Source: Candidatus Bathyarchaeota archaeon
GTDB lineage: Archaea > Thermoproteota > Bathyarchaeia > Bathyarchaeales > Bathycorpusculaceae
Length of the DNA: 64,000 nt
Assembly: GCA_963768425.1 (NCBI GenBank)
Contig: CAVYHV010000017.1
Span: forward strand, 160,001-224,000
Direction of reading: 5' to 3'
The first letter of the stretch is position 1. The number at the start of each line of letters is the position of its first letter. Shown piece by piece: positions 28,385-62,458 of this stretch. The notes below the pieces were generated by a model. That model worked only from the letters and a program-made list of their open reading frames with translations, was not told where the DNA came from and made no database searches. A program made the position numbers and the translations under genes.

Positions 28385-29002
28385 CTATTCTTTTCGATTG
28401 GATAGCAATTGTTCGGCAAGTTGCAGTTCTCTTACTGTGTTGATGTTGACGGCTAGTTCTTCTAGGTCTAGCAGATAGATGTCTTGGTCGAGCCATTCGT
28501 CGCCGTAACGTTTGCGACCGTCGATGACGTTGATGCCGACGGGAACCACGTCTTTGTCGTTCATTTTGAACGAGTACTCGACGCACATGCCCAAACGCTT
28601 TTTGGTTTCAAGAGGTACCGCTACGGTTAGGGCGGGTTTGCCGCATTGCTCATAGCGTTCCACGATTGCATCCAACACTTCAGCCGTGACAAGAGGTAAG
28701 TCAGCCGCGATAGCTAAGAAAACGCCTAGTTTGAGGTTTTGGCTCGCGTAGCCCATGTCTGAAACATAGTCTTTCCCAGGCGTGTCAACCACTTTGACCG
28801 GGAAGCTGCTCAAGTGTGTGGTAGTCTTCGGTGTGCAAGCGCTTGTTGCAACAATGATGCTGTCTATTTTCTTGGCGTCCTTTAGTGCTTCAATCACGTA
28901 TTCGATTACTGGTTTCCCGCAGATTTTAATCAACGGCTTTTCTTCGCGGATTTGCATGCGTGTTCCTCTTCCGCCAGCCATGACAAGCGCCTTTACGCCC
29001 AA
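28385..29002 (-). CDS. cobY: GTP:adenosylcobinamide-phosphate guanylyltransferase CobY (copy 1)
   Basis: MAGGRGTRM...EKPL, TPGKDYVSD, ADLP, NINT; adjacent to cobS. Confidence 0.88.
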   Translation of the reverse strand: MGVKALVMAGGRGTRMQIREEKPLIKICGKPVIEYVIEALKDAKKIDSIIVATSACTPKTTTHLSSFPVKVVDTPGKDYVSDMGYASQNLKLGVFLAIAADLPLVTAEVLDAIVERYEQCGKPALTVAVPLETKKRLGMCVEYSFKMNDKDVVPVGINVIDGRKRYGDEWLDQDIYLLDLEELAVNINTVRELQLAEQLLSNRKE

Positions 29003-29767
29003 GCAGCCACCGCCAGCAATACAATCACGCAGACCATTCGGGTTATTTCGTTAGTGGCTCCGAAAACGTCGCCTGTGACCCCGCCGAAATGCCTGTGAGC
29101 AACTGCAACCATCACCAAACTTGTGACAACGCTTGCTAAGACAACCATCGCGCCTGCCCAACCAAGCAGAGGCAAAGCAACCGCAAAAGAAAGCACGAGC
29201 GCAACGAGGAGCCTTAAATTACCTTTGCCGCCGCTCATGGCTTCAAGAAATGGGGAATTCATGCCTTGATGAACTGATTTTCCAGCCCAAGCCATGATAA
29301 CCATGGAAAGTTTAGCTGAAGCCTCAATAACAATGATGCCGCCGACAATCAAAGGAATTTTGAACAGACCGTTGACCTACGATTTGTCCAATGGCTAAGG
29401 CTGAGATAAGCATGGTCATAATGCCTATAGATAAGCCTCCTGCACCTGTGAGTTGGTCATGCATAACCTCGATTTTGTGTTCGGGTGTACCATGAGCCAT
29501 GACGCCGTCGCCAAAATCCAGCAAGCCGTCGGTATGGTGAAGCCCAGTAATTAGAAGCAACAAAGCTAAAACTAAGCCGCCGACGACTATGCCTGGCAAA
29601 AATTGGTCAGCCACCCAACCAAAAACCCCAGCAATTAAGCCGATAACTGCGCCGATAAGCGGGAAAGTCCACATGCCTTTGGCGCAGTCAGTAAGCATGT
29701 CCTTGTCCATCGCTACGGGAAAGATTGTGAGGAAAGACAGCAGGTTCTTGAGCTCTTTAATAACCAT
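28993..29767 (-). CDS. cobS: Cobamide synthase CobS (copy 1), frameshifted near 29350
   Basis: FLTIFP, FPLIG, TGLHHTDGLLDFGDG, MHD...GAGG, FGGVTGDVFGA.NE. Confidence 0.88.
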
Positions 29768-29768
29768 C

Positions 29769-30869
29769 TCACTTCAAACCCATAAGCAAACCATAATTGT
29801 GCTCTATCTCTTTAAGCAATAGGTCAGCCGTCACAGCGCCGCCAAGCTTCGCCATAGCAGCGATCGAAGCGCCCCCCGCACCGACCCCTTCCTTCACAAG
29901 ACCCGTCTCGTAGATTTGCAACCCTGGGAAACGTGAACAACCAAAGTTCAGATTAGCCGCTAAAATCGGTACATCACAGAACTGCTTCACAATCCCTTTG
30001 AGGTCAGACGACTTGTCTTTTGCAACCCATCTGGTTGTGCCCACAGCCACGTTACACAAAACGTCGGGCTGCAAAGCGTTAATCAAGGCTAAGACAGCGC
30101 TCATCTGGGTTCCGCCCGCCATCAAAACGGGGACTTGTCCAGCCGCACCAACAACCAAACCTGTGAACGCGGCCATCATCGGGTCGCCAACGCAGGAAAT
30201 CGCCTTAACAGGGTCTTTCGCTAAGCTACCGAAGCTTTGACCTGCAGCCGCCAAACCCGCCTTAACTGTTTCAGCCTTTAAAATGTGGGGATTCTGAGGC
30301 AACGTGCTGCTTACCTTTCCCTCAGCACTCACGCCAAGAGCCGACAGTACGCCAAGTGCGGTTGTTGTTCCCCCTGGAATGCTCTCGCCAATCACAAGGT
30401 AATCAACGGCCTTCGCCAAGTTTTGCCCAGCAATTTTGGCGCGTTCAATAACTTCTGCAACATTGTCAACTGCGTTGCCGCTTCGAATGTCCCTACCAGG
30501 GTTTCCGCCCAAATCTAAAAAAGGAATCTGAGGCTTCACTCTTACCCCGCCGCTGGCTATGAGCACAGGAATGTCGGCGAGTTGCAGAGCGGACCTTGTA
30601 ATCAATCCAGGCGTGGGGATTCCGTCGGGAGTTATGGGAACACCGTTGATGGATTTGCATTTGCCTAAAAGAAGCAGTTCAGCGTCTGCGGGCGGAGTGT
30701 AATCCGTGAATTCGGGGTTTGCACCAGCCGCAGATATTCCTGCGATTTTGCCAGTTTCAGTTGTTCCGATTGTGCAGATGAAAAGTGGGTTTTTGCCCGC
30801 GACTTCATCGAGGAAAGCCTTAGCTTTCAACTCGTTATTCGCGATTATTACGTCGAGTGCTTGGTCCAT
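29769..30869 (-). CDS. cobT: Archaeal-type nicotinate-nucleotide:base phosphoribosyltransferase CobT
   Basis: GISAAG...TP.ADAE, GESIPGGTTTA, MAGGTQM, VKEGVGAGG. Confidence 0.88.
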   Translation of the reverse strand: MDQALDVIIANNELKAKAFLDEVAGKNPLFICTIGTTETGKIAGISAAGANPEFTDYTPPADAELLLLGKCKSINGVPITPDGIPTPGLITRSALQLADIPVLIASGGVRVKPQIPFLDLGGNPGRDIRSGNAVDNVAEVIERAKIAGQNLAKAVDYLVIGESIPGGTTTALGVLSALGVSAEGKVSSTLPQNPHILKAETVKAGLAAAGQSFGSLAKDPVKAISCVGDPMMAAFTGLVVGAAGQVPVLMAGGTQMSAVLALINALQPDVLCNVAVGTTRWVAKDKSSDLKGIVKQFCDVPILAANLNFGCSRFPGLQIYETGLVKEGVGAGGASIAAMAKLGGAVTADLLLKEIEHNYGLLMGLK

Positions 30870-30870
30870 C

Positions 30871-31557
30871 CTACGTTTTTCCCTTGCCTTTCGGCTTGAC
30901 TTCGAACTTTTTGATTTCGAGACATCCGAAGCCGCCGTCTAGCTTGTGCTTTTGTGTTTCTAGGATTTCAATCTTTTTCCTAAATGTGGGTCCATCGGTC
31001 ACGACCGTATGGTATTCGCCGCCTTCGCCGCATGGGTCAACGCCGCCGAGTTTAAGGATATCGTCATAAAATTTTCTGTCCAGCACCCTTCCAAGCCACT
31101 CAACACCAAGCTTCTCCAGGTTCGTGCGGACTACGGTTGCTTTAAAACCAGTTTTCAAGTAATCAAGATAAATCTGCTTCGTGTCACCCATCCATAGCGG
31201 CTTAATCGGCTTCAAACCGACTTCTTTGAGTACTCTGCCCAGCCAACCCTCTTCATGCCCAGCCACCTCATAGATGTCACCTGTAACTAAGCCTTCGACG
31301 CCTTCGGCTTTGAAGTGTCGCAACGCAGCTTTGAAGTCGTCCTCGTACGTTTTGGGGGTTGCTTGTTGTTTCACAATGGGGATTCCAATTGCGTCTGACT
31401 GAGCATCCAAAATTCCTACCGGTATCATGTGGAAGTTTGATTTTTCCTTGCTCATCATCATGGTCAAAATTTTGACTACTTCGTAGCCCTGCTGGATTGC
31501 CAAGTAGTAAGCGTAGCAACTGTCTTTGCCGCCGCTCCAAGAAGCAACAACTTTCAT
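30871..31557 (-). CDS. DUF71/Dph6-like ATP-dependent amide ligase (copy 1)
   Basis: PP-loop SWSGGKDS, GDI, PLW, DPCGEGGEYHT.V.DGP.F. Confidence 0.88.
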   Translation of the reverse strand: MKVVASWSGGKDSCYAYYLAIQQGYEVVKILTMMMSKEKSNFHMIPVGILDAQSDAIGIPIVKQQATPKTYEDDFKAALRHFKAEGVEGLVTGDIYEVAGHEEGWLGRVLKEVGLKPIKPLWMGDTKQIYLDYLKTGFKATVVRTNLEKLGVEWLGRVLDRKFYDDILKLGGVDPCGEGGEYHTVVTDGPTFRKKIEILETQKHKLDGGFGCLEIKKFEVKPKGKGKT

Positions 31558-31982
31558 TTCCGTTTAATCCTCCCATAATATCCTTCACCTTTAACCGCTG
31601 AACCAACGACAACGTCAAGTTGAACGGATTTGCCAAAGATTCAAGGGAAAGAGTCCCTGAAACGTGTGGACAACAAAACGCGGTTTTAGCGGTCAAATAT
31701 TCAGATAATCTGCCAATCGATAGAAGATTGAGTGGAACAATCGGTTTTTTTTCGATGTTCAGCAAATTATCCTTTCCCGTGTTTGGTTGGTTTATCCAAC
31801 CTTTTCATATAAGCATTACGGTTTCTACAATCAATCAACACTTAGAAGAATTTTAAGCTCAAAACGCAGGTTTTGAAGCCGCAAATCCGTGGTTGAAATT
31901 CTCCTGCCTAAGCATTTGTCTGAAGGTTTTCCAGAAAGCTTTTAATTGTGTATCGATTGAGGAGTTTACGCTGTTGGGCTCC

Positions 31983-33142
31983 ATGGTCAAAACAAGGCTA
32001 TGCATAGTTACACATACTTTTCTGCCCCATGTCGGTGGGATAGAGAAGGTTGTTAATGAACAGAGCAAACGGCTCATGAAACGAAACTTTAAGCCCATGG
32101 TTGTCACAAACCGCATCGGCACTCCCAAAACCTACACGGTTGATGGCGTAAGTGTCGAGTGCTATGAATCACTAAACACAGGCTTTCGCCTCGGCATACC
32201 CTACTCCATTCCAACGCCTACAAGCCTTGGAACCTTTCTTAAAACCGTAAACGCAAGCGACATAGTCCATGCACACGGTCACCCATATCTAACCTCGCTT
32301 ATCGCCGCAAAACTCGCCAAAAGGTACGACAAACCCTTCGTTTTAACCCAGCATAACACATTCATCCAGTACGACAGCATGTTCGACAACGTTGAGCGAC
32401 TCAACGACTTGTCAGTAGGGAAGGAGACGCTTAAAGACGCAGACAGAATAATCGCGGTAAGCAACGCAACCAAAGAGTACGTCCTCAGCTTAGGCGCAAA
32501 ACCGAGAAAAAATCAAAGTCCTCCACAACGGCGTAGACTTCGATCATTTCAGGCATCTGCCGGGAAAACAGGAGGAAATGCGAGCCAAATTTGGGATCCC
32601 AAAGAACGCAGCCGTGGCAATAACTGTGACGCAGGCTGGTTTACAAGAACGGGATTGACACTTTGATTGAAAGCGCAAACCTCGCGATCAAAAAGAACCC
32701 GAACCTTGTTTTCCTTGTCGTTGGAAAGGGACCCGACCAAAACGGGGTTCAAGCCAGGATTCGAGAGTTAGGGATAGAGGACAACTTTCGGCTAGCGGGT
32801 TTCGTCAGCGACCAGGATTTACCGTTTTGCTATAACGCGGCCGACTTCTTTGTGTTGCCGTCTAAATCTGGTGAAGGTTTGCCTTTGGTTGCGCTTGAAG
32901 CCATGGCTTGCGGCTTGCCGGTTGTAGCGACAGACGTCGGGGGGATTAGGGAGATTCTGATGGAAGATCACGGTGAATTGGTGCCGCCTAACCAGCCGGA
33001 GCTGATGGCTAAGGCAATCTTAGAATATTCCTATGCTGATTTATCTGTTGGCATACTGGAGCTCCGTGCTGCGGTTGAAGAAAAGTTTAGTTGGGAAAGA
33101 AACGTTGAAGCTCTCGTGGGAATATACGAAGAGCTTATTTAA
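31983..33142 (+). CDS. GT4 family glycosyltransferase, frameshifted
   Basis: FLPHVGGIE, VHAH, HNGVD (alternate frame), EGLPLVALEAMACGLPVVATDVGG. Confidence 0.88.
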
Positions 33143-33184: not shown

Positions 33185-33922
33185 ATGACATCAAAAGTTG
33201 AAATGGTTTCGGTCGTCATTCCGACACTTAACGAAGCAGGAAACATACTTGAAGCAGTCAACACTATCCACAAAGAGCTAGCGTACCCCAACGAAATCAT
33301 CGTCGTTGACGGCAACTCCACCGACGGAACAATGGAGCTTGTGAAAGACACAAGTTTTTGCCGGCTGATCATCGAGCCAAGACGCGGCTATGGAATAGCT
33401 TTGCGGACTGGCATGAAAAACGCGAAGGGAAACATCATCGTTATGGTTGACGGTGACGGAACCTACGAGGTAAAACACATCAACCGCCTAGTTGAAAGAA
33501 TGCTTGAGAAAGACGCGGACATGGTTTTAGCCACACGCATGTTTGACCCGAAAAAAGCCATGGGATTCACGAATTTCATCGGGAACAAAATCATTACCTT
33601 GGTTTACGACTTCTTTTACAGCCAACTGCTCAGCGACACGCAATCGGGGTTTCGGGCGATATCGCATGAATGCATCGACAACGTGCCTTTGGTGGAAGGG
33701 GACATGGCTTTTGCCACCGAAATGCTGGTGCAGTTCGCCAAGGTCGGGTACAACATGGTTGAAATCCCCACAACTTACAAACCGCGCAAATATGGGCAGA
33801 CTAAGCTTAAACCATTTAAGTCAGGTATCGAAATATTTAGCACCATATTCAAGGGATTTCTTGATGCGGATACTGTTAGAACGTGCCAAAAGCATTGGAG
33901 AGAAAATAGGCTTAAACGATGA
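33185..33922 (+). CDS. GT2 polyprenol-phosphate glycosyltransferase (DPM1-like)
   Basis: VIPTLNE, VVDGNSTDGT, GYG, DGDGTY, DTQSGFRA. Confidence 0.9.
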   Translation: MTSKVEMVSVVIPTLNEAGNILEAVNTIHKELAYPNEIIVVDGNSTDGTMELVKDTSFCRLIIEPRRGYGIALRTGMKNAKGNIIVMVDGDGTYEVKHINRLVERMLEKDADMVLATRMFDPKKAMGFTNFIGNKIITLVYDFFYSQLLSDTQSGFRAISHECIDNVPLVEGDMAFATEMLVQFAKVGYNMVEIPTTYKPRKYGQTKLKPFKSGIEIFSTIFKGFLDADTVRTCQKHWRENRLKR

Positions 33923-34397
33923 CAAAGGCTACTTAGTTGCTATCGCCCTTGCCTTAATCATTATATCATCGTTGCTTGCAGGGTACTACTTGCTCTATAA
34001 GCCGGTGCCTGAAGGCTTCAGCACGATTTATCTGCTTGATTCGCAGAACAAAGCAGAAAATTACCCGCAAACTTTAGTTTCTAACCAGAACAGCACCTTT
34101 ACCTTGCCAGTTACTGTCGTGAACAACATGGGATACACAATGAAATACGAGGTTTTAGTGAAAATCACTGATGACCTAACCTCCTTGCCGGTCAATGTAT
34201 TGCCTATTGACACATACAATTTCACCTTGGGCAATGGTAAAACCTACCAAAAATCAGTCACAGTTACAGAAAACCAAGCTGGAACCTACTCAGTGGTTTT
34301 TGAGCTTTGGCAATACAATTCTGCTTCAGGAACTTACCAGTTTACAAACAACAATGTGCAGAATTATTGTGTCTTAAACATTCAAGTTATAAGTTAA
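33864..34397 (+). CDS. DUF1616-like membrane-anchored protein, start uncertain
   Basis: TM helix then EGFSTIYLLD...AENYP...VVNNMG...VVFELW. Confidence 0.65.
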   Translation: MRILLERAKSIGEKIGLNDDKGYLVAIALALIIISSLLAGYYLLYKPVPEGFSTIYLLDSQNKAENYPQTLVSNQNSTFTLPVTVVNNMGYTMKYEVLVKITDDLTSLPVNVLPIDTYNFTLGNGKTYQKSVTVTENQAGTYSVVFELWQYNSASGTYQFTNNNVQNYCVLNIQVIS

Positions 34398-35861
34398 GTT
34401 TTCTTGTGAGTTTCAGCGTATTGTTTTTCGATTGCGACTCTGTGGATGTTGTTGTAGGCGCAGAAAGGTATGATTTTCAAGTCAGGCGTAATGTAGTGGA
34501 CAACGCATCGTCGGACACGATTTACGTCAAAGTTGTATGAATCCATAAACGCCATGCAGCCGAGCAGAAAGATCCGTCTGCGGATTTTGCCAAGCGACTG
34601 ATACGAGGGCGAAAGATGCATTCGCATAATCGAATTCATCAGAGTAAGCATCCCCACTTCCTGAGTTACCAATAGCATATTCATCGAAAGCATAGACGCC
34701 ATAAACAGCGAAGAAAGCAAGGAGAGTTTGCCTTTAGAATCCGCGTTCTCAGCGGTTTTTCGGATGGTGGAGAAGAATCGATCAAAGTTGACGAAACGGT
34801 TAATCGGGAACATTTTGCCGTCTTTGGAAACGTAAATCCAGTTTACGATGCCGCATTGGGGACTGCATGAGAAGAGGGGCCATGGCTTCTGCATGAATTT
34901 ACGCATTATCTTGATCGGAGAAGTCATAACCGACATGGGGTACAAATCGGTCATTTTTATTTCGCCGCCTGTTTGTTTTTCAACGTCTTCTGCAAATGAC
35001 CATTCGCGGAAGTTTTCTCGGAATGGGTTCTCGGTGGCTCTGCCCGTGAAGGCGATAGGTTGGAAAATCAAGCCTCGCACGATATCTGTGTTTTTGGCGG
35101 CGAACCGTATCATGTCGCCGACTTCTTTATCGTTCAGGCTCTTCATCAATGTGTTAACTAGGATGATTTCCATGTCGTATTTGCGGCAAACTTCGATAGC
35201 TTTGAGTTTTTCCTCTAGCAGCGCTTTTCCCCGAATCTTCTTGTTAAAATCGTCATGGAAACTGTCAAACGACAAATAAACAATGTTTAAGCCGTTAGCC
35301 TTTAGCTTCTTCGCCAGACCCGGGGTATCAACCAAATGTGTTCCGTTGGTTGCCAGAATAGTCATGAATTTCAACTTGTGGGCCGCCCCGATGATTTCAG
35401 GCATGTCCTCCCGTTCCAGGGGTTCTCCGCCTGAGAAAAGAATGGCTGGTGGCTTGGGGTTAGCTTGGCTAACGAACTCCAGCATTTTAATTAAGTGCTC
35501 TTTGGTTGGTTCATAATCGGTTCCTTGTTCCGGAAAAGTTGAGAAGCAGATGGCGCATCTGAAGGTTGCAGCGTTTCGTTACGTCGATTACGCCGATAAC
35601 CGTGCCTGAAGCGTGTTTGTTGCAGGTTTCGCATTTGTAGGGGCAGCCTTCTGGGTTTTTAGGGGCGTTCAAGTCGCCGAGGTATTGGAATTGATCATAA
35701 GTTTGCATGTGGTTGAAGACGGGTGTGCTTTGCCAGTGGGTGGCTTCGAATTCGCCGTGCTCTGGGCATTGCTTGGCGATTTTTATTTTGCCGTTAGCTT
35801 GAGTTAGTTGGGCGTCAATTTTCTTTTGGCATTCTGGACAGATGCTTTTTGTGTCGCTCAA
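34394..35861 (-). CDS. tes: Tetraether lipid synthase (Tes/GDGT-MAS, MJ0619 family) homolog, frameshifted near 35560
   Basis: SICPEC...CPEHGEF, GCPYKCETC, DVTKRCNL/CAICF, GGEP, FQPIAFTGR, CMAFMDSYNFDVNRVRRCVVHY.TPD..IIPFCAYN. Confidence 0.85.
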
Positions 35862-36754
35862 CTTACAGCCCTCCTACCATGTGGGATAGCCGCTTGTAGT
35901 ATTAAAGCCAACGGAAGCAGAATCATCGACATTGTTACTATACGTTCGTATTTCCGCACACTCGCGATATTTGAAGCTGTAGTTGCCAGGCGAACTGAAG
36001 AATAAATCAATAGGGCGCTCCAAACAAGAATGGGAGCCAAATAGTAAAAGTTAAAGTGGCGCTACGAAAAAGGGAAATGGTGCAAGTAACCCTGTTAAGA
36101 AAAAGAACCCAGCCGCGGCTTTCGATGAGTCTCCGATACCGATTTTCTGCGGAAGCGTGGGATACCCCGTTTTTGAGTCGCCGTCAAGGCTCAGCACGTC
36201 GCGCAGCACGTTGCCGCCTATAGTTCCCAAAGCTATTGGGTAGAGACTGAGAGAAATGATGCTGATGGTCGGCGGGACTAGAGATTGTTGCTTCTCCGTA
36301 GAGAAAAGCGGTTCCTGTTAAGATTCCGACCAAAACGTTGGCTGCAAACCCTGACTTACGTTTTACAAACAGTAGAGTAAACCAGCAGCAAAGCTGAGTC
36401 GGCAGCGATAATCGCGAAACTTAACCAGTTAATGAAGAAAGCCAGAGCTAAACCCGCTGCGAAAAGCACACTTGAAATAGCCACGACCTGCTTCAAGGAC
36501 AGGGAACCTGAGGGTATGGGTCGTTTAGGCTTTATAACTGCGTCACTTTCTCTGTCGAAGTAGTCGTTTATTGCGAAGCCTGCGGAGGTTATGAAAGCCA
36601 TGGAAAAGAAAATCAGCAAAACCGTTTGGACGCTGAGGTCGGCGGGATTTTTTGTGATAGCAAAAGCTGTCAGGAGGGATAAACCGCCAGTCATCAACCA
36701 GTATGGAAGACGCAACAGAGCGATTAGTCCTCTGGCTGGGGCTGGAGCAGCCAT
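35858..36754 (-). CDS. UbiA prenyltransferase, DGGGP-synthase-like, with about three frameshifts
   Basis: INDYFDRESD..KPKRPIPSG, KRKSGF.AN, RDVLSLDGD..GYPTLP. Confidence 0.82.
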
Positions 36755-37683
36755 TAAATTTTCCTGTCAGCGATGACTTCTTTAATGCTCTCCTCAAGGC
36801 TTACTTTGGGGCTCCAGTTTAACTCCTTTTTTGCTTTGCTGTTATCGAACCATATGGTGGTAACGTCGCCCTGCCAGGAGACGCCTGTGGTTGTTACGAC
36901 TGTTTTGTCCTGAAGATTAAGGATTTGAAGCATGAGTTTGGCGAGGTCAATTATTTTTATGGTCGTCCCGTAACCTAAATTGTAGGTTCTGCCGTTTGTG
37001 AACTCTTCCGAGCCTACGGTTATCAGCGCGTCAACCACGTCTGAAACATGCACGAAATCGCGTGACTGCAAGCCTGTGCCGATTATTTCAAGTTTGGCCG
37101 GGTTCTTGGCGATTTTGTCTAAAAAGTCATGGATAACCCCGTGGCACCTTAAACCGTATACGTTGGCGAACCTCATGATGGTGACGTCTAATCCGTATTG
37201 GTCGCGGTACATTTCACAGTATTCTTCACCGACAACCTTGGATAACCCGTAACATGAGAAAGGATGAAAACCATAGGTCTCAGGAGTTGGGAAGACAGTT
37301 GGGTTACCGTAGACTGCGGCGCTGGACGCAAAAACCAGTTTGGCATCGTCTTTACGGGCTTTTTCCAGCACATGAACGGTTCCTTTAGCGTTAGTTTCAA
37401 AATCTATCAGCGGATTCTCCATGGAGTATGGAACAACAACTTGAGCGGCTAAATGGTATATTAGGTCGGCTTTTTCCACGGAAAGCAGCTTCTTGGGGTC
37501 GAGGATGTCACCTTTCACAAGTTTTGCTTTGCCGACATCTTTTACATTTTCCATTTTGCCGCTTGACAAGTTATCGTAAATCGTCAAATCGGAAGTTAAG
37601 CCGGCAAGGCGCTTGCACAAATGGAACCCGATGAAGCCTGCGCCGCCCGTTACAAGAATCTTTTTCCCCTTAAGTTCTCCCAT
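36754..37683 (-). CDS. NAD-dependent nucleotide-sugar epimerase/dehydratase
   Basis: VTGGAGFIG, HLAA, ASSAAVYG, YGLSK, RDFVHV. Confidence 0.92.
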   Translation of the reverse strand: MGELKGKKILVTGGAGFIGFHLCKRLAGLTSDLTIYDNLSSGKMENVKDVGKAKLVKGDILDPKKLLSVEKADLIYHLAAQVVVPYSMENPLIDFETNAKGTVHVLEKARKDDAKLVFASSAAVYGNPTVFPTPETYGFHPFSCYGLSKVVGEEYCEMYRDQYGLDVTIMRFANVYGLRCHGVIHDFLDKIAKNPAKLEIIGTGLQSRDFVHVSDVVDALITVGSEEFTNGRTYNLGYGTTIKIIDLAKLMLQILNLQDKTVVTTTGVSWQGDVTTIWFDNSKAKKELNWSPKVSLEESIKEVIADRKI

Positions 37684-37730
37684 AACTATCACGACAAAGT
37701 CTATATTCCATTTCAATTAGTGTAGGGTAT

Positions 37731-38560
37731 ATGTCGCCTGAGAAAGCTATAAAAACTTTTAGGGATTTGCTGGCTTTCCTAACAATAATCCCCGCGGGCG
37801 GAAAAGAAGATTTCATATTCACAACGGCGGAGCACGTTTACCTTTTCCCCGTCATCGGCGGCTTAATCGGCGTGCTTGCAGGAGCCTACTTTCTCGGCGC
37901 AAACTTTATTGTCCACTTTTTGCTCGGGGCAGTTAACACGTTAATCGCCTTGCCAGTCGACACGCTGTCGAAGCTTGCTGTTGCGGCTATGACAGTGGCG
38001 TTCCTACTGGTCATAACTGGACTCCAACATTTTGACGGCTTAATAGACTTAGGAAACGCGTTTGGCTCAAGAAACCTGCACGACCGCAAGATGGTCGCCC
38101 ACGCTTGGACTGTTACTTATTGGGGAGCATTGCTGGCAATGATTGTCGAGTTTGCAGCATTCGCAGGGTTGTTTTTGATTAACCCGCTCTACGCTTTCGG
38201 AGCCATTTTGCCGCTGAACTTTCAGCGAAACTATCTATGGTCACAATCGTCTGGGTAGGCAAACCCACACATAAGGGGTTAGGCTCAATTTTCCTGCAAA
38301 AAGCAAAAATCAAACTTAACATAATCGCTTACGCACTCTCTATCATTCTTGTATATCCTTTCTTCGCCTTGATAGGCAAACCTTACTTGGGCTTAATCGC
38401 AGTTGGGCTGGTTCTGGTCAGCATCCCAGTGGCGTTGGCGATGGAGAAAGTTGCAGAAAACATCTTTGGCGGAGTCTCAGGGGACGTAATAGGCGCAACA
38501 AATGAGGTTTCTCGTGCAGTTGCGCTTATTTTATTTGCAGGCGTGTTGATTCTTCTATGA
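37731..38560 (+). CDS. Divergent CobS-like protein (copy 2), frameshifted near 38210
   Basis: FLTIIP, FPVIG, TGLQHFDGLIDLGNA, FGGVSGDVIGA.NE; lacks the MxD...GxxG motif. Confidence 0.8.
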
Positions 38561-39174
38561 AAGTTCCCGCGTTGATTATGGCTGGCGGCAAAGGCAAACG
38601 CATCGGGTTACCTATAGAGAAGCCGCTTCTGCCTTTTCTAGGCAAGCCACTACTTGACTGGGTTGCAGAGGCAGTGAGTTGTGCAACGAAGGTTTCTGAA
38701 TTTTACGTTGTGACGAGCTCGAACACTCCCGAAACTGAGAAGCATAGTTTAAGCATGGGATGGAAGGTTCTACGAACGGATGCCAAGGGGTACCATAACG
38801 ATTTGAAGCAGGCAGCCTTGCAAGCGAACCTTTCAGGTCCCATTTTGACCATTCCAGCGGATTCCCCGGCTATAACAGGCAAGTTCCTCGACAAAATAGT
38901 GGACCAGTTTGAACGGTGTGGGAAAGACTTCTACGCGGTTTTCGTACCCATCCCGGCCCGCGAAAAGTTGGGGCTGTCCGTCGATTCCACCGATGAGTAC
39001 AAAGGAGAATGGTATGCTGTATCGGGAGTCAATATCATTGATGGCACCAAAAGTCAGACGGAAGGAAAAATTGAGACAAATGCCTTCATCACGGAAGAAA
39101 TCGAAGTGCTACTTAACATTAACACACTAAGAGACTTGGAAACAGCGGAAAAAGTCATGAAAAGCAAACTTTAA
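38557..39174 (+). CDS. CobY-like nucleotidyltransferase (copy 2)
   Basis: MAGGKGKR...EKPL, GYHNDL, ADSP, GVN, NINT. Confidence 0.82.
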   Translation: MKVPALIMAGGKGKRIGLPIEKPLLPFLGKPLLDWVAEAVSCATKVSEFYVVTSSNTPETEKHSLSMGWKVLRTDAKGYHNDLKQAALQANLSGPILTIPADSPAITGKFLDKIVDQFERCGKDFYAVFVPIPAREKLGLSVDSTDEYKGEWYAVSGVNIIDGTKSQTEGKIETNAFITEEIEVLLNINTLRDLETAEKVMKSKL

Positions 39175-39247
39175 CGTTTAGGGAAATATTTAACATCCGC
39201 ACATAACCTACTCTAAACCTGTTGTTGTTTCAGGAGACCTGCTTTGG

Positions 39248-40681
39248 ATGAGTCTGCTTAGCCATGATAGCTTCTGGAATGCAGTGATAACACTGCCTGT
39301 GACTAAGCGGATGCTCAAGCTGTCACTAAAAAAGTGTCCAGCGTGCGGCAGAACTGTTCTTGAAGCAGCATTGGATTCTTACGCGAGAAAAACTGATCGG
39401 GACTGCCCAAAATGCAGCGCTCTTTATTCGCAGATTATTGGTTTCTGGGTCGAGTTTCTCAGGCGCAGTTTAAATATTAAACGGGAAAAAGTTGAGAAAC
39501 TCCTCGCTGACCCATATGCACGTCGCGCGGTTTTAAATTTGACGAAAAGCTTCGGCACTTTGGGCATCAAAAAACCGATTTCTCTTTGCGCGCCTTTCCT
39601 CATTGTCTGGGACTTCACACATAAATGCAACCTGAACTGCAAACACTGCTATTCGAACAGCGGCGTCGTCAAAGAGGAAGAGCTTTCAACGGAGCAGGCT
39701 AAGGCGGTGGTTGACCAGCTTGCAGATGCGGGAGTGACTGCATTGGCTTTTTCAGGCGGCGAGCCCCTGACGCGGAAGGACTTCTTTGAGGTTGCGAAGC
39801 ATGCGGCAGACCGGGGGCTTTACGTGTCGGTAGCCACAAATGGAACTTTGCTTACTAAGGAGAACGTGACGAAGCTCAAACAAGCCAAGGTCAACTACCT
39901 TGACATAAGCATTGACGGGGCATCAGCCAAGACGCATGATGAGTTTCGCGGTGTGCCAGGCGCGTTTGACAAGGCGGTTACTGGGCTGAAAAACTGCGTG
40001 GAAGCCGACCTATGTGTTTGCATTGCTTCAACGGCAACAAAAACCAACTTTGAAGAGTTCCCTAAAATTGTCGATTTAGCCGAGGAAGTGGGCGCCGAAC
40101 GGTTCACTTACTTCAATTTCATCCCCACAGGCAGAGGCAAAGCGCACTACGACCAAGACCTCTCGCCCGAAGAACGTGAAAAACTGATGCGATACCTGCT
40201 CGCGCGAATGTCAAAGGGCTGCAAAACTACCATTCTCACTACGGCGCCGCAGCTCGCCCGGGTTGGCTTGCAATGTCAGGGGCCAGAGGGCACAGGTGAA
40301 GTCACTATGTCCATGGCACATATGCAAACCGTCAAAGTAACCAAGAAAGCCGTGCCGCTGGCAGACTTCATCGGCGGCTGCGGAGCAGGCAGACTCTACT
40401 GTTCTTTGTCGCCCCAAGGAGACGTACACCCATGCGTCTTTCTGCCAGTGAACGTCGGTAACCTAAAAAACGAAAATTTTCAGGAAATCTGGCTCAATGC
40501 TCCCCTCTTCAAATCTTTGCGGAACAGAGGCAACATTAAAGGAGCCTGCGGAAAATGCACGTACAAGTACATTTGCGGCGGATGCAGGGCACGTTCAGCG
40601 GCTTACCATAACGGCGACATGCTCAACTCAGACCCAGGCTGCATAATGGGAAAATATGCGGAGGCTGCCAAAAACGCCTGA
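39248..40681 (+). CDS. Radical SAM/SPASM enzyme with a Cys-rich N-terminal extension (candidate Gms-like)
   Basis: CPAC...CPKC, APFLIVWDFTHKCNLNCKHCY, GCGAGR...PC, C.KC....CGGCRAR...DPGC. Confidence 0.85.
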   Translation: MSLLSHDSFWNAVITLPVTKRMLKLSLKKCPACGRTVLEAALDSYARKTDRDCPKCSALYSQIIGFWVEFLRRSLNIKREKVEKLLADPYARRAVLNLTKSFGTLGIKKPISLCAPFLIVWDFTHKCNLNCKHCYSNSGVVKEEELSTEQAKAVVDQLADAGVTALAFSGGEPLTRKDFFEVAKHAADRGLYVSVATNGTLLTKENVTKLKQAKVNYLDISIDGASAKTHDEFRGVPGAFDKAVTGLKNCVEADLCVCIASTATKTNFEEFPKIVDLAEEVGAERFTYFNFIPTGRGKAHYDQDLSPEEREKLMRYLLARMSKGCKTTILTTAPQLARVGLQCQGPEGTGEVTMSMAHMQTVKVTKKAVPLADFIGGCGAGRLYCSLSPQGDVHPCVFLPVNVGNLKNENFQEIWLNAPLFKSLRNRGNIKGACGKCTYKYICGGCRARSAAYHNGDMLNSDPGCIMGKYAEAAKNA

Positions 40682-41633
40682 GCAAAAAAGTGTTAAAATC
40701 TTAAGAGCACATGGCGGCGTAAGCGACATTTTGAAACAAGCCGTCGCAGACTCGGGATTGCGCGGAAAACGCAAAATTTACGTGAAACCCAACATGAGCC
40801 ATCCTGAGTACGTTCCGGGTGTGGTAACTTGCCCCCAGATGCTGGGTGAACTGGTGGGTTTGCTGCGAGACGGCAACAGCGAAGTCGTGGTTGGAGAATC
40901 AAATGGGTTCAATTACCCCTGCAACTCCGCTTTTGAAAAAACAGGAATAGAAGCGGCAGTGAAGCAAGCAGGCGGCAGCGTCATTAACCTGTCAGAAGAT
41001 AAAGTCGTAAAAGTAAAATTTTCTGATGGCAACACCTCGGTCAAGGAGCTGTTTTTGCCAAAAACCATCTTGGAAGCAGACGCCGTGGTCGATTTGCCGT
41101 TGATGAAGACACATGAAATCGCGATGTACAGCGGCGCAATAAAAAACCTGTTCGGCTGCATCCCCAGCAACAGGCGGATATACCTTCACCCTTACCTCCC
41201 AGAAGTCTTCCACCGGCTTTACACTGTTTTGAAACCTCAGCTGACCATAATGGACGCGAGAATCGGGATCGAGGGCAACGGACCCACAAAAGGAAAACCC
41301 GTCAAAATGGACCTGATGCTGATTAGCAATGACGCCTTAGCCATCGACATCACAGCCGCGAAAATAATGCAGCTAAATTGGGAAGAAACCTACCTGGGTT
41401 TCATCGCCAAAAAGACGGGCTTGAAAGAAAACGCGGTAAGTGTGCAGGGGTTGCAAATTAAGGAGGTCTCCCGCAAATTTGAACAGCCCAGAATCGATTT
41501 GCCAGTTAAAGCCCAAATGGAAATTTATCAACACGAATACTTGACGAAGCTGCTGTTCTGCTCGTTGGATGTGGTTAAGCTTTTCCAGAAAGTTACAATG
41601 GCTTGGAGACGCGAACCAGTTCAAATCGCTTAG
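40656..41633 (+). CDS. DUF362 domain protein
   Basis: VKPN, VGES, LPLMKTH, GAIKNLFG, EGNGP, DALAID. Confidence 0.85.
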   Translation: MRRLPKTPEQKSVKILRAHGGVSDILKQAVADSGLRGKRKIYVKPNMSHPEYVPGVVTCPQMLGELVGLLRDGNSEVVVGESNGFNYPCNSAFEKTGIEAAVKQAGGSVINLSEDKVVKVKFSDGNTSVKELFLPKTILEADAVVDLPLMKTHEIAMYSGAIKNLFGCIPSNRRIYLHPYLPEVFHRLYTVLKPQLTIMDARIGIEGNGPTKGKPVKMDLMLISNDALAIDITAAKIMQLNWEETYLGFIAKKTGLKENAVSVQGLQIKEVSRKFEQPRIDLPVKAQMEIYQHEYLTKLLFCSLDVVKLFQKVTMAWRREPVQIA

Positions 41634-46264: not shown

Positions 46265-46574
46265 GTTGAGCAAGCGGTCACAAATTCAATTCCATAAACT
46301 TGTTTTGGTTTATGAGACAACTGTACCTTGATTTGCAGTTAAGGTTTTTTCAAAAATTGTCCTGCTTTGCCTTCAAAGCTGATGAAATATCGTCTACGAC
46401 GCTATTCAAGAATTATGAACACACCCCCGCCACAAGAAGACCCAGGAACATGCTAAAATCCATCAAAGGCAAAAATCGAAGGTCACTGAATCGGTTTCCA
46501 AAAAACACTTATTAGGTCACTGATGTTTATCCATCAGCCAATTAATCCCGAATATACAATGGTGTTGATTTGGT

Positions 46575-47306
46575 ATGAAGGTTATCGTTCATTGGAGCGG
46601 CGGGAAAGATTGCTGCACGGCTCTTCACAAGGTTGTAGAACAGGGACATGAAGTAGCTTGCCTAGTCACCTACATTTACATGGAACCCTACGTTTTCCAC
46701 AGCTTCAAAGTCATCGAACAACAAGTCAAAGCCCTCGGCATGCCCCATCAATTTGTCAAAATCACTGATAACCGCTACGATGACATCATGGGAACTCTGG
46801 AACGGCTACATAAAGAAGAAGGCGCCAAAGCCATAGTAACAGGCGATATCGACAATGTGCATCATCGCCGCGTTTGGAAGGATGCTTGCAGGAAACTGGG
46901 TGTTGAGCTGATTATGCCTCTTTGGGACCGCCCCTTCAACCTCATTCCGGGGAATCGCCGCCGCAAGCGAATCATGGAAATGGAACAAACAACTGGAGTA
47001 AAAGCGATCCTCAGCTGTGTCGATCAAAGGTATTTCACGGAAGATTGGTTAGGAAGGCAAATTGATAGGAAGTGCATCGAAGACATGCAGCCCTTGGTGG
47101 GTCCAGCAGGCAAAGGAATAGATGTTTCAGGTGAACCGGGAGAATACCATTCCACATCTCTTGATGCGCCATTGTTCAAGCAAAAGGTAGAAATAAACAA
47201 GTTCACTAAGAGAAGCAAAGTCGTCGATTTCGGAGGTTCCCCCTTCCGCGAAGGAAACTTCCTCTACATGGACATCGAAGAAGCCGAACTCAAATCCAAA
47301 GAATAG
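46575..47306 (+). CDS. DUF71/Dph6-like ligase (copy 2)
   Basis: HWSGGKDC, TGDI, MPLW, WLGR, DVSGEPGEYHS..LDAPLF. Confidence 0.82.
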   Translation: MKVIVHWSGGKDCCTALHKVVEQGHEVACLVTYIYMEPYVFHSFKVIEQQVKALGMPHQFVKITDNRYDDIMGTLERLHKEEGAKAIVTGDIDNVHHRRVWKDACRKLGVELIMPLWDRPFNLIPGNRRRKRIMEMEQTTGVKAILSCVDQRYFTEDWLGRQIDRKCIEDMQPLVGPAGKGIDVSGEPGEYHSTSLDAPLFKQKVEINKFTKRSKVVDFGGSPFREGNFLYMDIEEAELKSKE

Positions 47307-47761: not shown

Positions 47762-49194
47762 TTAGAAGTGGCTTTTTGATGGTGGCTTGGGCGGCACTCG
47801 GTTGGGTTGAAGTGCTATTCTGAGGTCTATAATCCTGTAAGTAACGGCTGCTTTCATTGCGGCTAAACCGTAGATGACCCCCTTTTTGAACATGGCCCTT
47901 ATGTAGCTTGGTCGTTCGTAGAAGCTCGACCACGCTTTTGCACGGAGCTTGCGGAGTTCCTGGATTGACATCGTTGGTGTTTCGAAGGTTGGTGTGGCGG
48001 TGTCGTAGTGGTCAAAGTTTGTGTCTTTTAGCCAACCCTTCTCTTTAACCAAGTAGTAGAGGGGTGTGCCGGGGTAGGGTGTGGCTATTGTGTAGGAAGC
48101 CATGTAAGTGGGTGCAATCTTCTGGCAGAGCTTTATGGTGGCCCACGCGGATTCTTTGGTTTCGCCTGGGAAGCCGAGGACAACGTTGGGGTCGGGTTTC
48201 ATCCCTGCCTCCACAGTCCACTGGAAGGCTTTGACTGTTTGCTCCAAAGTGATGCCTTTTCGCATTTCGTTGAGAACGTTTTGTGCGCCGGATTCGACAC
48301 CGTACCACATGGATTTGCAACCTGCCTGAGCCATTTTCTGCAGCAGTTCTTTGGTTACCATGTCAACTCGGGTTCCAGCCACCCAGTTAACGTTGAGGTT
48401 TCGCTTGATAATTTCGTCGCATAAATCAGCGGTGAATTTTTGGTCTACTGTGAAGGCTGCGTCGACAAAGGAGAACCATGTTGCGCCAAAGGTTTTCTTG
48501 CATTCTTCAAGTTCGTCGCAAACATTTTGGACGCTGCGCTTGCGGAATTTTTGCCCATGCATTCGGACTTCTATGCAGAAGTCGCACCAATACGAGCATC
48601 CGCGGCTTGCGATGATGTCGAACATTATCTTGCCGTACTTTGACGTGGCTTCTAGAGGCCACAGGTGGCGAGCTGGAAAGGGAAGTTATCAAGGTTCTCT
48701 ATGTAAGCTCTCTTGGGGTTCTTCACGATCTTACCGTCTTTTTGAGTCGTTGTCCCGATCACATCGTGCCAATCTTTGCCCTCTTCTACGCGTTGAGCAA
48801 GTTCGAGCATCGTGTATTCGCCTTCGTTTCTAATGACGGCGTCAAGAGTCGGGAGGTCTTTGAAGGCTTGTTCGTCCTCAAAGGTAACGTGGTGTCCACC
48901 GATAATGGTTATGCAGTTGGGAAGCGCTTCTTTGGTAACCTTGAGGATTTGCAGCGCAGACTTGTACGTTAGGGTGTTGCATGTTACTCCGACAATGTCT
49001 GGTTTGCGTTTGCCGATTTCTTCCCTGAAACTTTCATAATTTAAATTGTAGGTTAAGCAGTCAACAACATCAATAACGAATTTGTTCTGCTCCAAAACAG
49101 CGGCAACATAGCCTAAACCCAGCGGCGGGAAGGGAGGATGCGGAAAAGATTGACCAGGGTACGGCGGGTTCACAAGAGTAATGTGAGTTTTCAT
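47762..49194 (-). CDS. Cobalamin-binding (class B) radical SAM enzyme 1, frameshifted near 48650
   Basis: LVNPP...PPLGLGY, GGHH, EGE, SRGCSYWCDFC, GVESG, GFPGET, PYPGT. Confidence 0.9.
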
Positions 49195-49349
49195 TTTTCT
49201 CCCCGAAATCGGTAATATTTTAGTTAAATTAAGTCTCGATGTTAATATAGTTGTCTAGTTTCCCAGAAAAGTCCTCATATTTGCCTGCAAAAGCTAAAAA
49301 CGAAGAGTCAACGCTCAACATTAAACTAAAAGCGAAGAGACCGAACTGG

Positions 49350-50717
49350 TTAACGACGGAAAACCATTGACGCGCTCTTCTTAACTGCGCTACTTAAGCC
49401 GTCCTGCTTTACCACACGCATAAACTTGGAAGTGGCTGATTTCTGGCAACTACGCTGAAACTCTCTTTGAATCTTCTCCAGCATATCATGGTCGAATTCT
49501 TTGGTTTTGACTCTCGCCAAATAGTCATACATTTGGTCGTAGAGACCTTTGCTTATCACTTCATCGTACAGTTGGCTGCCGGGGCAAGCTATGTAAATGT
49601 TGAATTGGCACCAATCCGCCTTCAGCTTTTTGGAAAAGTTGAAGGTTTCGTTCATGTCATCCACCGTTTCGCCTGGAATCCCCAGCATGAAAGAAGTGAC
49701 TGTCTGTATACCCGCTTGCCTGCAAAGCTCAAAGGCTTTTACAACATCCTTCAAATCAATGCCTTTGTTGAGTTTCTGCTGGATTCTGGGTGAGCCTGAC
49801 TCGACACCGAAGAACATTGTTTGGCAGCCTGCGGATTTCATTTCGGATAGTAGTTCTTTGTTAATAAGGTCGGCTCGAGTTTCGCAGGTCCATTTCAAAT
49901 CGACTTTGTTGCTTTTGATTAGGCGGCACAGTTCGCTTGTACGTCTTTTGTTTATGGTGAAGTTGTCGCCGACGAAGTAAATGCCTTTTGTGCCGTAGAT
50001 TTCGGTCATGTGCTTTATCTCGTCTATGACGCGTTGAGGCGAGAAAGCTCGGCACGCTGAACCCCAAAGCTCTCTGGTTTCGCAGTATGCGCATCTGTAG
50101 GGGCAACCCCTGTGCACACTCATCGTGTCAACGGGTTTCACAGTTAGGTAGCTGAGTTCACGGTGGTACATGCGCATCGGCAGCAAATGGCGGGCGGGAA
50201 AGGGAACTTCATCGAGGTTGTTGATAAATTGGGGCGGGGTTTTGATAGTTTCGCCGTTGATTTTGCATGAAACCCCGGGAATCTGCGCTGCCGCTTGGGA
50301 GGTTTCGCCTTTTGCGAGACAGGAAGCCAGAGAAGCCATTGCCCGTTCGCCTTCGCCGACGACTACATAGTCTATCTCGGGGTGCTCAAGCAAGGTTTGA
50401 GGCATGTAGGAGGCATGTGGGCCGCCGACTACGACCTGTGAGTATGGGGAGACTTCTTTGACTGCTTTTGCCAGCTCGATACAGCGTCCGTATGAGAGGG
50501 AGTTGCAGGTTATGCCGACAATTTGCGGCGACCTCTTCTTTATTTCTGATTTGACTTCTTCGATGGGTCTTTCAAGCAGGTAATTGTCGTAGATTTCAAC
50601 TTGGAAGCCGTCTTTCTCCAATACCGCAGCCACGTAAGCCAAGCCTAAAGGCGGAAGTCTGCCCGCCATGCCCCAAGGCGACTTTTCAGGCGCAGCCGCA
50701 GTCATAAGCAAAATCAA
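49350..50717 (-). CDS. Cobalamin-binding radical SAM enzyme 2
   Basis: PPLGLAY, GGPH, GEGE, RGCPYRCAYC, GVESG, GIPGET. Confidence 0.92.
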   Translation of the reverse strand: MILLMTAAAPEKSPWGMAGRLPPLGLAYVAAVLEKDGFQVEIYDNYLLERPIEEVKSEIKKRSPQIVGITCNSLSYGRCIELAKAVKEVSPYSQVVVGGPHASYMPQTLLEHPEIDYVVVGEGERAMASLASCLAKGETSQAAAQIPGVSCKINGETIKTPPQFINNLDEVPFPARHLLPMRMYHRELSYLTVKPVDTMSVHRGCPYRCAYCETRELWGSACRAFSPQRVIDEIKHMTEIYGTKGIYFVGDNFTINKRRTSELCRLIKSNKVDLKWTCETRADLINKELLSEMKSAGCQTMFFGVESGSPRIQQKLNKGIDLKDVVKAFELCRQAGIQTVTSFMLGIPGETVDDMNETFNFSKKLKADWCQFNIYIACPGSQLYDEVISKGLYDQMYDYLARVKTKEFDHDMLEKIQREFQRSCQKSATSKFMRVVKQDGLSSAVKKSASMVFRR

Positions 50718-50742
50718 ATGAGTTTTTTCTCCCGTAAGTTTC

Positions 50743-52155: not shown

Positions 52156-52283
52156 GTTCTCCCCTAAAGCAATAGAGTTTATGCCTTGTGCTTCATTTAC
52201 TTTATGCAATACCACATATTTTCCGGCCAGACATCCAAAACATCAGAGAAAATGCAGTGCGGGCGTCAAAAGCGACGGGATTT

Positions 52284-52991
52284 TTACTTGGGCGTTTCTT
52301 TGGGTTTTAGGTGGCATTCTTTTATGTCCATGTAGAGCCAGTTTCGTTTCCAATTTTTGGATTTTTCCTTCTTTTTCTTAGTTTTGAATTTGTCTATGCT
52401 CAAAGAATCTTTAAACAGAGGCGCTTCGACCACGGTGCTGTGGTAGCCTTGTCCGTCTTCGCTGGCTACGTCGATGCCTTTTTCGTCGGCTAAGGATTTG
52501 AGTTCCTTGACGGATTCTGGGTCAAGTTTTCTTCCCAGCCATTCTTCGCCGAAAAAGTTGGTGTTGATACAGTTTAAGACCGGTCTTAGGCCTGTGACCA
52601 CAGCATCTTTAAGCACTTCGTATGTGTCGCCCTCGTTAGGCATCAAGAAGGCTAACCCCAACTGTTTGGCCATACTCTCATAGTAGCTTGAGTGTACAAT
52701 GGCGCAGCCTGCACCAGCTATGTCTCCTGTAACGATGCCTTCGATGCCCGCCTCGTCCTTCAGTTTGCTTAGGGCGCCAAGGATGTCTTCGTACGGCTTT
52801 TTGATTCTGACAACTTTAAGGGGTGTGCCCAGTGTTTGGGATTGGAGCTGCATCATCTGGAAACTGTGGAATACGTAGGGACGCTGGTATTCGAAGCTGA
52901 GCAGACAAGCGACTTGGTGCCCCTGCGCTATGACTTTGTGGTAGGCTAAGCAGCATTCTTTACCTCCGCTCCAGTGGACGACAACTTTCAT
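52284..52991 (-). CDS. DUF71/Dph6-like ligase (copy 3, divergent)
   Basis: HWSGGKEC, TGDI, WLGR, DVASEDGQGYHS.V.EAPLF. Confidence 0.78.
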   Translation of the reverse strand: MKVVVHWSGGKECCLAYHKVIAQGHQVACLLSFEYQRPYVFHSFQMMQLQSQTLGTPLKVVRIKKPYEDILGALSKLKDEAGIEGIVTGDIAGAGCAIVHSSYYESMAKQLGLAFLMPNEGDTYEVLKDAVVTGLRPVLNCINTNFFGEEWLGRKLDPESVKELKSLADEKGIDVASEDGQGYHSTVVEAPLFKDSLSIDKFKTKKKKEKSKNWKRNWLYMDIKECHLKPKETPK

Positions 52992-53180
52992 ACTTTACCC
53001 CTCTCCAGTCTGGAAAAGGCACTTGAAAGGGCTATAAACCTTTTCGTAAACATAATCTGCGGCTTCCACCACAGGCGAAAACAGCAAAAACAAACAATAA
53101 CATCGGCCCAAGCATTGGTTCAGTTAAAGCTATTAACTCGCGAATAATCAAAGATAGCAAAAGTTCACGGGAGACGCAAC

Positions 53181-62421: not shown

Positions 62422-62458
62422 TGCAAAGTTTTAATCAAAGCGCCAATGGTATTATGGC

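Follow-up and report, generated by a model that had tools for sequence, protein, structure and literature searches.

A GalE-like epimerase, a DGGGPS-like prenyltransferase and a second Tes-like protein in a candidate accessory ether-lipid cassette of Bathyarchaeia

The DNA analysed here is a stretch of 64,000 nucleotides (the window) from a Candidatus Bathyarchaeota archaeon (GenBank assembly GCA_963768425.1, contig CAVYHV010000017.1, positions 160,001 to 224,000). The source organism, an archaeon of soil or peat, stands near Ca. Bathycorpusculum. The window is part of contig C17 of the genome G000, which amounts to 2.96 Mb in 33 contigs with a completeness of 91% and a contamination estimate of 4.75%. 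Three co-directional genes on its minus strand (34394-37683) are identified by profile matches as a short-chain dehydrogenase/reductase (SDR) resembling the epimerase GalE, a UbiA-family prenyltransferase (UbiA2) and a homolog of tetraether synthase (Tes2), in agreement with a first-pass annotation of the same DNA. They are compared below with the genes of 201 genomes of the order and with the relative L108, which is 95.4% identical over 8.8 kb. The coordinates of all features are collected in Table 1.

The SDR gene is intact. Its translation scores 188.8 bits against PF01370 and 169.1 bits against the GalE model TIGR01179, under the curated cut-off of 262.3. The closest solved structure is 3EHE (GalE-1) with 188 bits, and the GalE structures 3EHE, 3ICP, 3KO8 and 3AW9 match the full length of the protein with 166-188 bits; we take 3EHE to be the GalE-1 of A. 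fulgidus and the other three to be from P. calidifontis. The NAD motif GxxGxxG of extended SDR proteins (GGAGFIG) and the catalytic YxxxK (YGLSK) are both present. The full-length match and these two motifs are shared with archaeal UDP-glucose/galactose 4-epimerases, whereas the sub-cut-off score on TIGR01179 (169 against 262) and the setting in a lipid operon distinguish the protein from them.

The UbiA2 gene as assembled consists of four pieces in different frames (36356-36766, 36184-36420, 36051-36317 and 35858-36061), and its profile scores were taken from the intact ortholog at L108:4821-5705. With the models of digeranylgeranylglyceryl phosphate synthase (DGGGPS), this protein gives 165 bits on NF009521 (cut-off 296) and 162.6 bits on NF009523 (cut-off 269), compared with 51 bits on NF008977, a model of the polyprenyl-phosphate sugar transferase type. 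The best solved relative is MjDGGGPS (6M31, 106.6 bits). The UbiA2 proteins of the order lie at 150-190 bits, while the canonical DGGGPS copy typically reaches 225-277 bits on NF009523. Motifs 1-3 of DGGGPS are listed in the available part of the review PMC9385802. In the alignment to MjDGGGPS, motif 1 (N62, D66-x3-D70) is kept as INDYFDRESD and motif 2 (Y125-x5-K130) as YSTFVK. Motif 3 reads D-x4-D-G-D, in which D180 and D187 of the MjDGGGPS numbering are retained, position 183 is occupied by Ser and an Asp is found two residues on. The Ala mutant of MjDGGGPS at D183 is described as without activity in the same part of that review. UbiA2 is therefore like DGGGPS in its best family and structure matches, in motifs 1 and 2 and in its similar length, but it differs in the low scores, in the altered motif 3 and in being a second copy beside a canonical DGGGPS.

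The Tes2 gene has a TTG start codon and is divided into the pieces 35511-35873 and 34394-35578, with the break at about 35560 within the radical S-adenosylmethionine (SAM) motif CX3CX2C. On the Tes model NF045702 (cut-off 450) the N-terminal piece gives 102.6 bits and the C-terminal piece 347.2 bits, each under the cut-off; an intact ortholog of 97% identity gives 466.8 bits, Tes2 of the f7 type 493.9 bits and the canonical Tes (Tes1) 672.8-681.1 bits. Tes2 aligns end to end with 7TOL, the structure of MJ0619, with 377 bits. MJ0619 is GDGT-MAS, the Tes enzyme of glycerol dialkyl glycerol tetraether (GDGT) formation; its metal ligands, including the labile Met439, are named in the available text of Lloyd et al. 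2022 (PMC9433317). The Tes2 translation carries CPEC...CPEH, GCPYKCETC, GCMAFMD, RCVVHY and PFCAYN, so that the Tes motifs listed in the first-pass annotation (CxxC...CPEH, CPYxCxxC, CMxFMD and HY) are all found. The rubredoxin-like CX2C-X20-CX2H and the N-terminal [4Fe-4S] site of three Cys plus His are present as CPEC...CPEH and CPYKCETC...H. The radical-SAM motif is not contained in a single frame of the assembly; it is intact as CNLRCAIC in L108 and in seven congeners. The C-terminal [4Fe-4S] ligands C337, C453 and C468 together with M437 (alignment numbering) do not vary across Tes1 and Tes2. In Tes2 the metal ligands of GDGT-MAS are thus invariant throughout: the rubredoxin CX2C...CX2H, C73/C77/C80 with a His, CX3CX2C and Met439. 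The RCCIHY sequence given for MJ0619 by the annotation is correct in the alignment to 7TOL, but RCVVHY is not a distinguishing mark, as RCLIHY or RCCIHY is found in the lineage's own canonical Tes. A lost cluster ligand at this place was considered and is ruled out, since canonical Tes varies at the second Cys of RCC (RCLIHY), and the Cys that precedes the labile Met varies as well.

Tes2 and canonical Tes have the same domain order and share all four metal sites. However, their sequence identity is only 35-42%, and the score of 466.8 bits is barely over the cut-off of 450, against about 675 for Tes1. Among 1.84 billion representative sequences, the best full-length match to Tes2 has 47% identity and 478 bits, and the next one 326 bits. 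A maximum-likelihood tree, computed quickly from 57 sequences and rooted on TrsS-type proteins, used 50 of the 110 representatives with 440-620 residues, fragments and fusions being excluded. In this tree the Tes2 proteins of the families f1 and f7 form one clade within Tes, with a value of 100 in the SH-like approximate likelihood ratio test (SH-aLRT) and a long stem of 0.45. The clade is separate from the characterised tetraether synthase (MJ0619, 7TOL/7TOM; MA_1486), of which Tes2 is accordingly not an ortholog. It is also placed apart from the Tes1 of its own lineage, which is not its sister; the neighbours are P0008 and P0016 (support 90). The genetic settings differ as well: Tes2 is in an operon with UbiA2 and the SDR, while the canonical Tes adjoins a TrmB regulator (in G003, G001 and G040). 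A published parallel is MA_1114, an additional Tes copy that accompanies a functional one and can be compared by its description only. In the accessible part of PMC8941075, MA_1114 gave no GDGT and macrocyclic archaeol only in traces, two Tes copies are reported in 22 of 322 methanogen genomes, and a linkage of second copies to UbiA or SDR genes is not mentioned.

The suggestion that Tes2 is a specialised paralog agrees with the survey of the order. A Tes match was found in 180 of the 201 genomes, and in 56 of them it is of the Tes2 type, defined by an identity of at least 45%: 17 genomes have 80% or more, 17 have 56-70% and 22 have 45-48%. At least 48 of the 56 have two or more Tes matches, and the second, where listed, is of the canonical type with about 38-42% identity. 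This canonical type occurs alone in 124 genomes. Both counts were taken among the matches listed, which leave aside 97 weaker ones. The congeners also hold two Tes homologs, namely the Tes2 ortholog (83-92% identity) and one of about 39% that is common to the other families of the order. In G000 itself the broken Tes2 is the single Tes-family locus above 100 bits. The canonical Tes of congeners lies in a block PALP-NADK-DegT-cyclophilin-Tes-TrmB, and in G000 this block breaks off 220 bp short of the end of contig C25. The TatD, S17e and SAM hydroxide adenosyltransferase genes of the block were likewise not found in G000. The canonical Tes is therefore unseen in G000 because its block runs off the contig end and the region is unassembled. 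The second enzyme is present: a canonical-type DGGGPS of 245 bits lies on the same contig as the window (C17:46970-47848). In a survey with NF009523 of 101 genomes of the order, G000 included, 93 have a DGGGPS copy with 142-307 bits, typically about 225-277. The existence of separate canonical copies, which the annotation had left to be checked, is thus borne out within G000 for DGGGPS, and for Tes in the congeners but not in the G000 assembly. A third DGGGPS-like UbiA of G000 at C30:72383-73234 scores 307 bits on NF009523, above the other 100 genomes sampled. It was tried as the canonical DGGGPS and dropped, as it is an outlier unmatched in those genomes while the C17 copy is typical of the order. 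It may lie on a contaminant contig or may be an acquired gene.

The order of the three genes is strictly conserved. Of the 201 genomes, 57 have a UbiA2 ortholog and 55 an SDR ortholog, and the cassette is confined to the families f1 and f7. Among the 56 genomes with Tes2, 55 have UbiA2 immediately upstream of it; in the remaining one, G125, the survey found no UbiA2 match. All 55 SDR matches lie directly upstream of UbiA2, within about 50 nt and on the same strand, so the epimerase linkage extends over two families. None of the three outcomes that would have spoken against the annotation (sole copies, branching with canonical orthologs, a linkage to the epimerase that is not conserved) is therefore observed. 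In the genomes G093 and G105, UbiA2 and the SDR are present without a Tes2-type match of at least 45% identity among the matches listed. The three genes are intact and collinear in all seven congeners compared; in the congener G106, which is 90% complete, Tes2, UbiA2, the SDR and a CobS-like neighbour described below are all unmatched, as would be expected of an accessory module. The packing of the genes is tight. The TAA stop of the SDR (36756-36754) and the ATG start of UbiA2 (36754-36752) share one base (TAATG). The TTG start of Tes2 (35861-35859) overlaps a TGA (35860-35858) in the window, but this stop exists only in the frame made by the fourth extra base of Table 1, and in L108 one base separates the UbiA2 stop from the TTG. 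Of the two stop-to-start overlaps reported at first, that at 36754 is consequently real and the other, at 35858-35861, depends on the extra base. More distant loci have 4-base overlaps at both cassette junctions, with GTGA (L029), ATGA (L025) and TTGA (L027) between UbiA2 and Tes2. Such packing is consistent with translational coupling, and the three genes probably form one translation unit.

The identities of the lipid genes thus stand, but UbiA2 and Tes2 are not single open frames as they had been described. Alignment with the seven congeners, the closer relatives L108, L106 and L037 and metagenome contigs reveals five single-base insertions in the window relative to its relatives, four in UbiA2 and one in Tes2. 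L108 encodes intact proteins of 309, 295 and 488 residues, and six indels separate it from the window over the 8.8 kb, namely these five and a deletion at 38210 in the next gene. Contigs from four peat-metagenome runs of four studies, which hold relatives of about 95% identity (shares 0.20-0.22) other than the source population, lack exactly the five extra bases and show no further indel over the 3.3 kb stretch, with the exception of one low-depth X8 contig. When the extra bases are ignored and the columns are read in the L108 frame, no stops are found, and the ratios of non-synonymous to synonymous substitution (dN/dS) against L108 are 0.093 for the SDR, 0.115 for UbiA2 and 0.022 for Tes2, as under purifying selection. 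Frameshifts are not limited to the cassette. At least six further genes in the window are broken across frames (MoeA, CobS, GT4, the CobS-like gene and two B12-binding radical SAM genes), and further single-base indels against relatives are found at 29375 and at three positions in GT4. Of ten window-specific single-base indels recognised by eye between 28.4 and 41.5 kb, eight are insertions outside homopolymers. Since so many other genes are split, the five frameshifts are very likely consensus errors of an indel-prone assembly rather than signs of gene decay, and this suggests that the whole assembly bears single-base indel errors. An alternative genetic code or programmed frameshifting is ruled out, as the frame changes occur in five unrelated, non-slippery contexts and are absent in the relatives.

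Table 1. Features of the window and the positions of frame changes discussed in the text
Feature	Coordinates	Strand	Remarks
SDR/epimerase, GalE-like, 309 aa	36754..37683	-	PF01370, TIGR01179, 3EHE; intact
UbiA2, DGGGPS-like prenyltransferase	35858..36754	-	PF01040; four +1 insertions; intact ortholog 295 aa
Tes2, Tes-like radical SAM protein	34394..35861	-	PF23545 + PF04055, NF045702; one +1 insertion; ortholog 488 aa
Extra base 1 (about 36370)	36369..36371		UbiA2, within motif 2 (Y-x5-K); absent in X1, X2, X3, X8, L108, L106, L037
Extra base 2 (about 36279)	36277..36279		UbiA2; absent in X1, X2, X3, L108, L106, L037; X8 uncovered here
Extra base 3 (about 36060)	36059..36061		UbiA2; absent in relatives; L106 and L037 with a different, longer gap
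Extra base 4 (about 35892)	35889..35892		Near UbiA2 C-terminus; moves stop from TAA (35865-35863) to TGA (35860-35858)
Extra base 5 (about 35560)	35558..35563		Tes2, within radical-SAM CX3CX2C; absent in relatives
GT4 glycosyltransferase	31857..33139	+	Split; indels 31979, 32504, 32630; beside cassette in 10/10 loci
GT2 glycosyltransferase, dolichol-phosphate-mannose-synthase-like catalytic domain	33185..33922	+	5MLZ 52.2 bits
DUF1616-like membrane protein	33531..34397	+	PF07760 46.4 bits; convergent with Tes2
Diverged CobS-like membrane protein	37731..38560	+	Divergent from SDR across 47 bp; 1-base deletion at about 38210 splits gene
MobA/CobY-like nucleotidyltransferase	38557..39174	+	PF12804 60.1 bits; directly after CobS-like gene
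Split genes elsewhere in the window	5929-7177, 28996-29773, 31857-33139, 37686-38557, 47765-49254, 53148-54576		

The genes on both sides of the cassette travel with it. Neighbourhoods were compared at ten loci (the window, L032 and L116-L123) from eight genera of the families f1 and f7. Besides the GT4 gene, the GT2 gene is beside the cassette in nine of the ten loci and the DUF1616 gene in seven (by Pfam). The CobS-like gene occurs in all ten, mostly followed by the MobA/CobY-like gene; the pairing of the window recurs in L032, L116 and L119-L123. In f1 the GT4, GT2 and DUF1616 genes run convergently towards Tes2, with the CobS-like pair in divergent orientation to the SDR, while in f7 the genes GT4-GT2-DUF1616-SDR-UbiA2-Tes2 are all on one strand. 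GT2 orthologs are present in 46 of the 56 Tes2-bearing genomes compared with 2 of the 145 others. In its phyletic pattern the CobS-like gene matches the lipid cassette, with orthologs (at least 40% identity) in 53 of the 56. Among known enzymes, the linked GT4 is similar to MshA, BshA and PimB, which act on small polyol or acid acceptors. An STT3 gene is also found within the window.

Several other observations were made in the window and the related contigs. The CobS-like/CobY-like pair is followed by radical SAM-SPASM and DUF362 genes in the window (37731-41633) and in L108, L119 and L121; a canonical CobS/CobY/CobT set is located at 28388-30938. A region of 16 kb (47765-54576 and 59911-63919) holds six B12-binding radical SAM genes, interleaved with CbiB/CobD and PF01902 genes. 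Three PF01902 paralogs (diphthamide-synthase-like ATP-binding) are found at 30874-31563, 46569-47303 and 52287-52994, each adjoining cobamide or radical-SAM genes. In the accessible text of a paper on Bathy-6 metagenome-assembled genomes (MAGs; PMC11697101), 7-20 B12-binding radical SAM genes are reported for each genome and lignin metabolism is suggested; lipid methylation is a possibility as another role. In the genome G112 of the family f6, a short contig (C156:403-1131) carries a GT2 gene 77% identical to the cassette-linked one, which suggests a stray from a Bathycorpusculum-like organism. The contigs L060 and L071, with a gene of the cassette locus at 84-87% identity, are filed as bacterial MAGs (Acidoferrum, Limnocylindrales) and are probably mis-binned.

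These comparisons allow us to propose, with moderate confidence and from sequence evidence, that the trio is a conserved accessory ether-lipid module of the Bathyarchaeia related to Ca. Bathycorpusculum, which would operate beside the housekeeping GDGT pathway. We infer the substrates and the product of the cassette as follows. The GalE-like SDR would interconvert a UDP-hexose, UbiA2 would add the second isoprenoid chain to an acceptor like geranylgeranylglyceryl phosphate (GGGP), and Tes2 would form a C-C bond between the ends of isoprenoid tails. The product would most likely be a glycosylated, tail-coupled lipid, tetraether or macrocyclic, made from a diether pool of its own; such a product is likely because GT4, GT2 and the DUF1616 protein travel with the cassette.

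Several points weigh against this proposal. As UbiA2 misses both DGGGPS cut-offs and has Ser at the position of D183, its acceptor may not be GGGP. MA_1114 yields no GDGT, and a Tes paralog therefore need not be a tetraether synthase. In G174 UbiA2 and Tes2 occur without the SDR in the cassette, and in G022, G147 and G215 the GT2 gene sits 16-44 kb off or on another contig. The genomes surveyed are kin, so that the counts of co-occurrence are not independent. As to the frameshifts, the five indels fall within 0.8 kb, denser than in the remainder of the 13 kb compared, and the contigs that lack them derive from relatives and not from the source population.

A bolder interpretation, which we regard as speculative though conceivable, is that GT4, GT2, DUF1616, the SDR, UbiA2, Tes2 and the CobS-like/CobY-like pair constitute a self-contained second membrane-lipid assembly line. 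UbiA2 would then build a dedicated diether on a non-canonical acceptor, and the CobY-like and CobS-like proteins would activate and transfer a phospho-linked head group, standing in for CDP-archaeol synthase and CDP-alcohol transferases. Sugar would be added by the epimerase and the glycosyltransferases, and Tes2 would join the tails.

The first-pass annotation had offered another explanation, in which a sugar-derived polyol supplied by the epimerase replaces glycerol, is etherified by UbiA2 and has its tails coupled by Tes2. The scores of UbiA2 under every DGGGPS cut-off, its altered motif 3 and the likeness of GT4 to MshA, BshA and PimB could be read in this way. In addition, Bathyarchaeia are said to make tetraethers with a butanetriol backbone (PMC13003381 in its available part, citing Dong et al. 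2025), but that backbone is described as a methylated glycerol in the accessible text of bioRxiv 10.1101/2025.10.20.683597. UbiA enzymes are reported to group by acceptor (PMC9385802, same part as above), and UbiA2 is closest to DGGGPS. The SDR resembles an ordinary UDP-hexose 4-epimerase, and a second first-ether enzyme of the GGGPS type was not seen in the ten loci. We therefore judge a sugar-derived backbone to be unlikely. A sugar head group is more economical than a sugar backbone, given that the closest families of UbiA2 and the SDR are DGGGPS and GalE, respectively, and that glycosyltransferases accompany the cassette.

It is improbable that UbiA2 and Tes2 of this genome are true, recently inactivated pseudogenes of an accessory module on its way out. 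The module does appear dispensable, as its genes are unmatched in G106, and five frameshifts in 812 bp compare with one other, at 38210, in the whole 8.8 kb common with L108. However, all five are +1 insertions without a single deletion, there are no stops and no excess of replacements (dN/dS 0.115 and 0.022), and the same kind of break affects many unrelated genes in the window, among them cobamide and molybdopterin genes.

A different tail chemistry of Tes2, such as intramolecular macrocyclisation or the coupling of a non-archaeol isoprenoid, for example a polyprenyl carrier, in a cluster for cell-envelope glycosylation, has a quite low probability. The long branch of Tes2, the likeness of GT2 to dolichol-phosphate-mannose synthase, the DUF1616 and STT3 genes within the window and the traces of macrocyclic archaeol reported for MA_1114 in the accessible part of PMC8941075 are compatible with it. 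On the other hand, Tes2 keeps the full ligand set of GDGT-MAS, and UbiA2 is nearest to DGGGPS (165 bits) and far from the polyprenyl-phosphate sugar transferases (51 bits on NF008977). That the trio is itself the housekeeping archaeol/GDGT pathway with the only DGGGPS and the only Tes is very improbable, for although one Tes-family locus above 100 bits is seen in G000, the canonical-Tes block is cut off at a contig end in a genome of 91% completeness, a canonical-type DGGGPS is present, and 124 genomes of the order have Tes1 but not the cassette.

Our literature search, with supplements and Dong et al. 2025 outside its scope, found no paper joining a Tes homolog and UbiA; within the same scope, the SDR-UbiA2-Tes2 cassette is not described in the accessible texts on tetraether synthase or butanetriol dialkyl glycerol tetraethers in Bathyarchaeia. 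The Bathy-6 paper (PMC11697101) does not mention lipid, tetraether or UbiA.

Bathyarchaeia count among the most abundant of the uncultured archaea, and their tetraether lipids serve as environmental biomarkers. We know of no genes for the unusual lipids of these organisms. In the proposed accessory module a second Tes, sharply delimited and strongly conserved, is combined with a dedicated prenyltransferase and sugar genes, and the module is a concrete candidate for expression and assay. It could reveal the role of second Tes copies, which was left open after MA_1114 gave no GDGT. It is important to note that screens of metagenomes for "tes" with a loose threshold will count Tes2 as GDGT potential. 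If the full set of linked genes were indeed a second assembly line, it would yield a class of glyco(phospho)-tetraether or macrocyclic lipids restricted to the Bathyarchaeia of soil, peat and gut.

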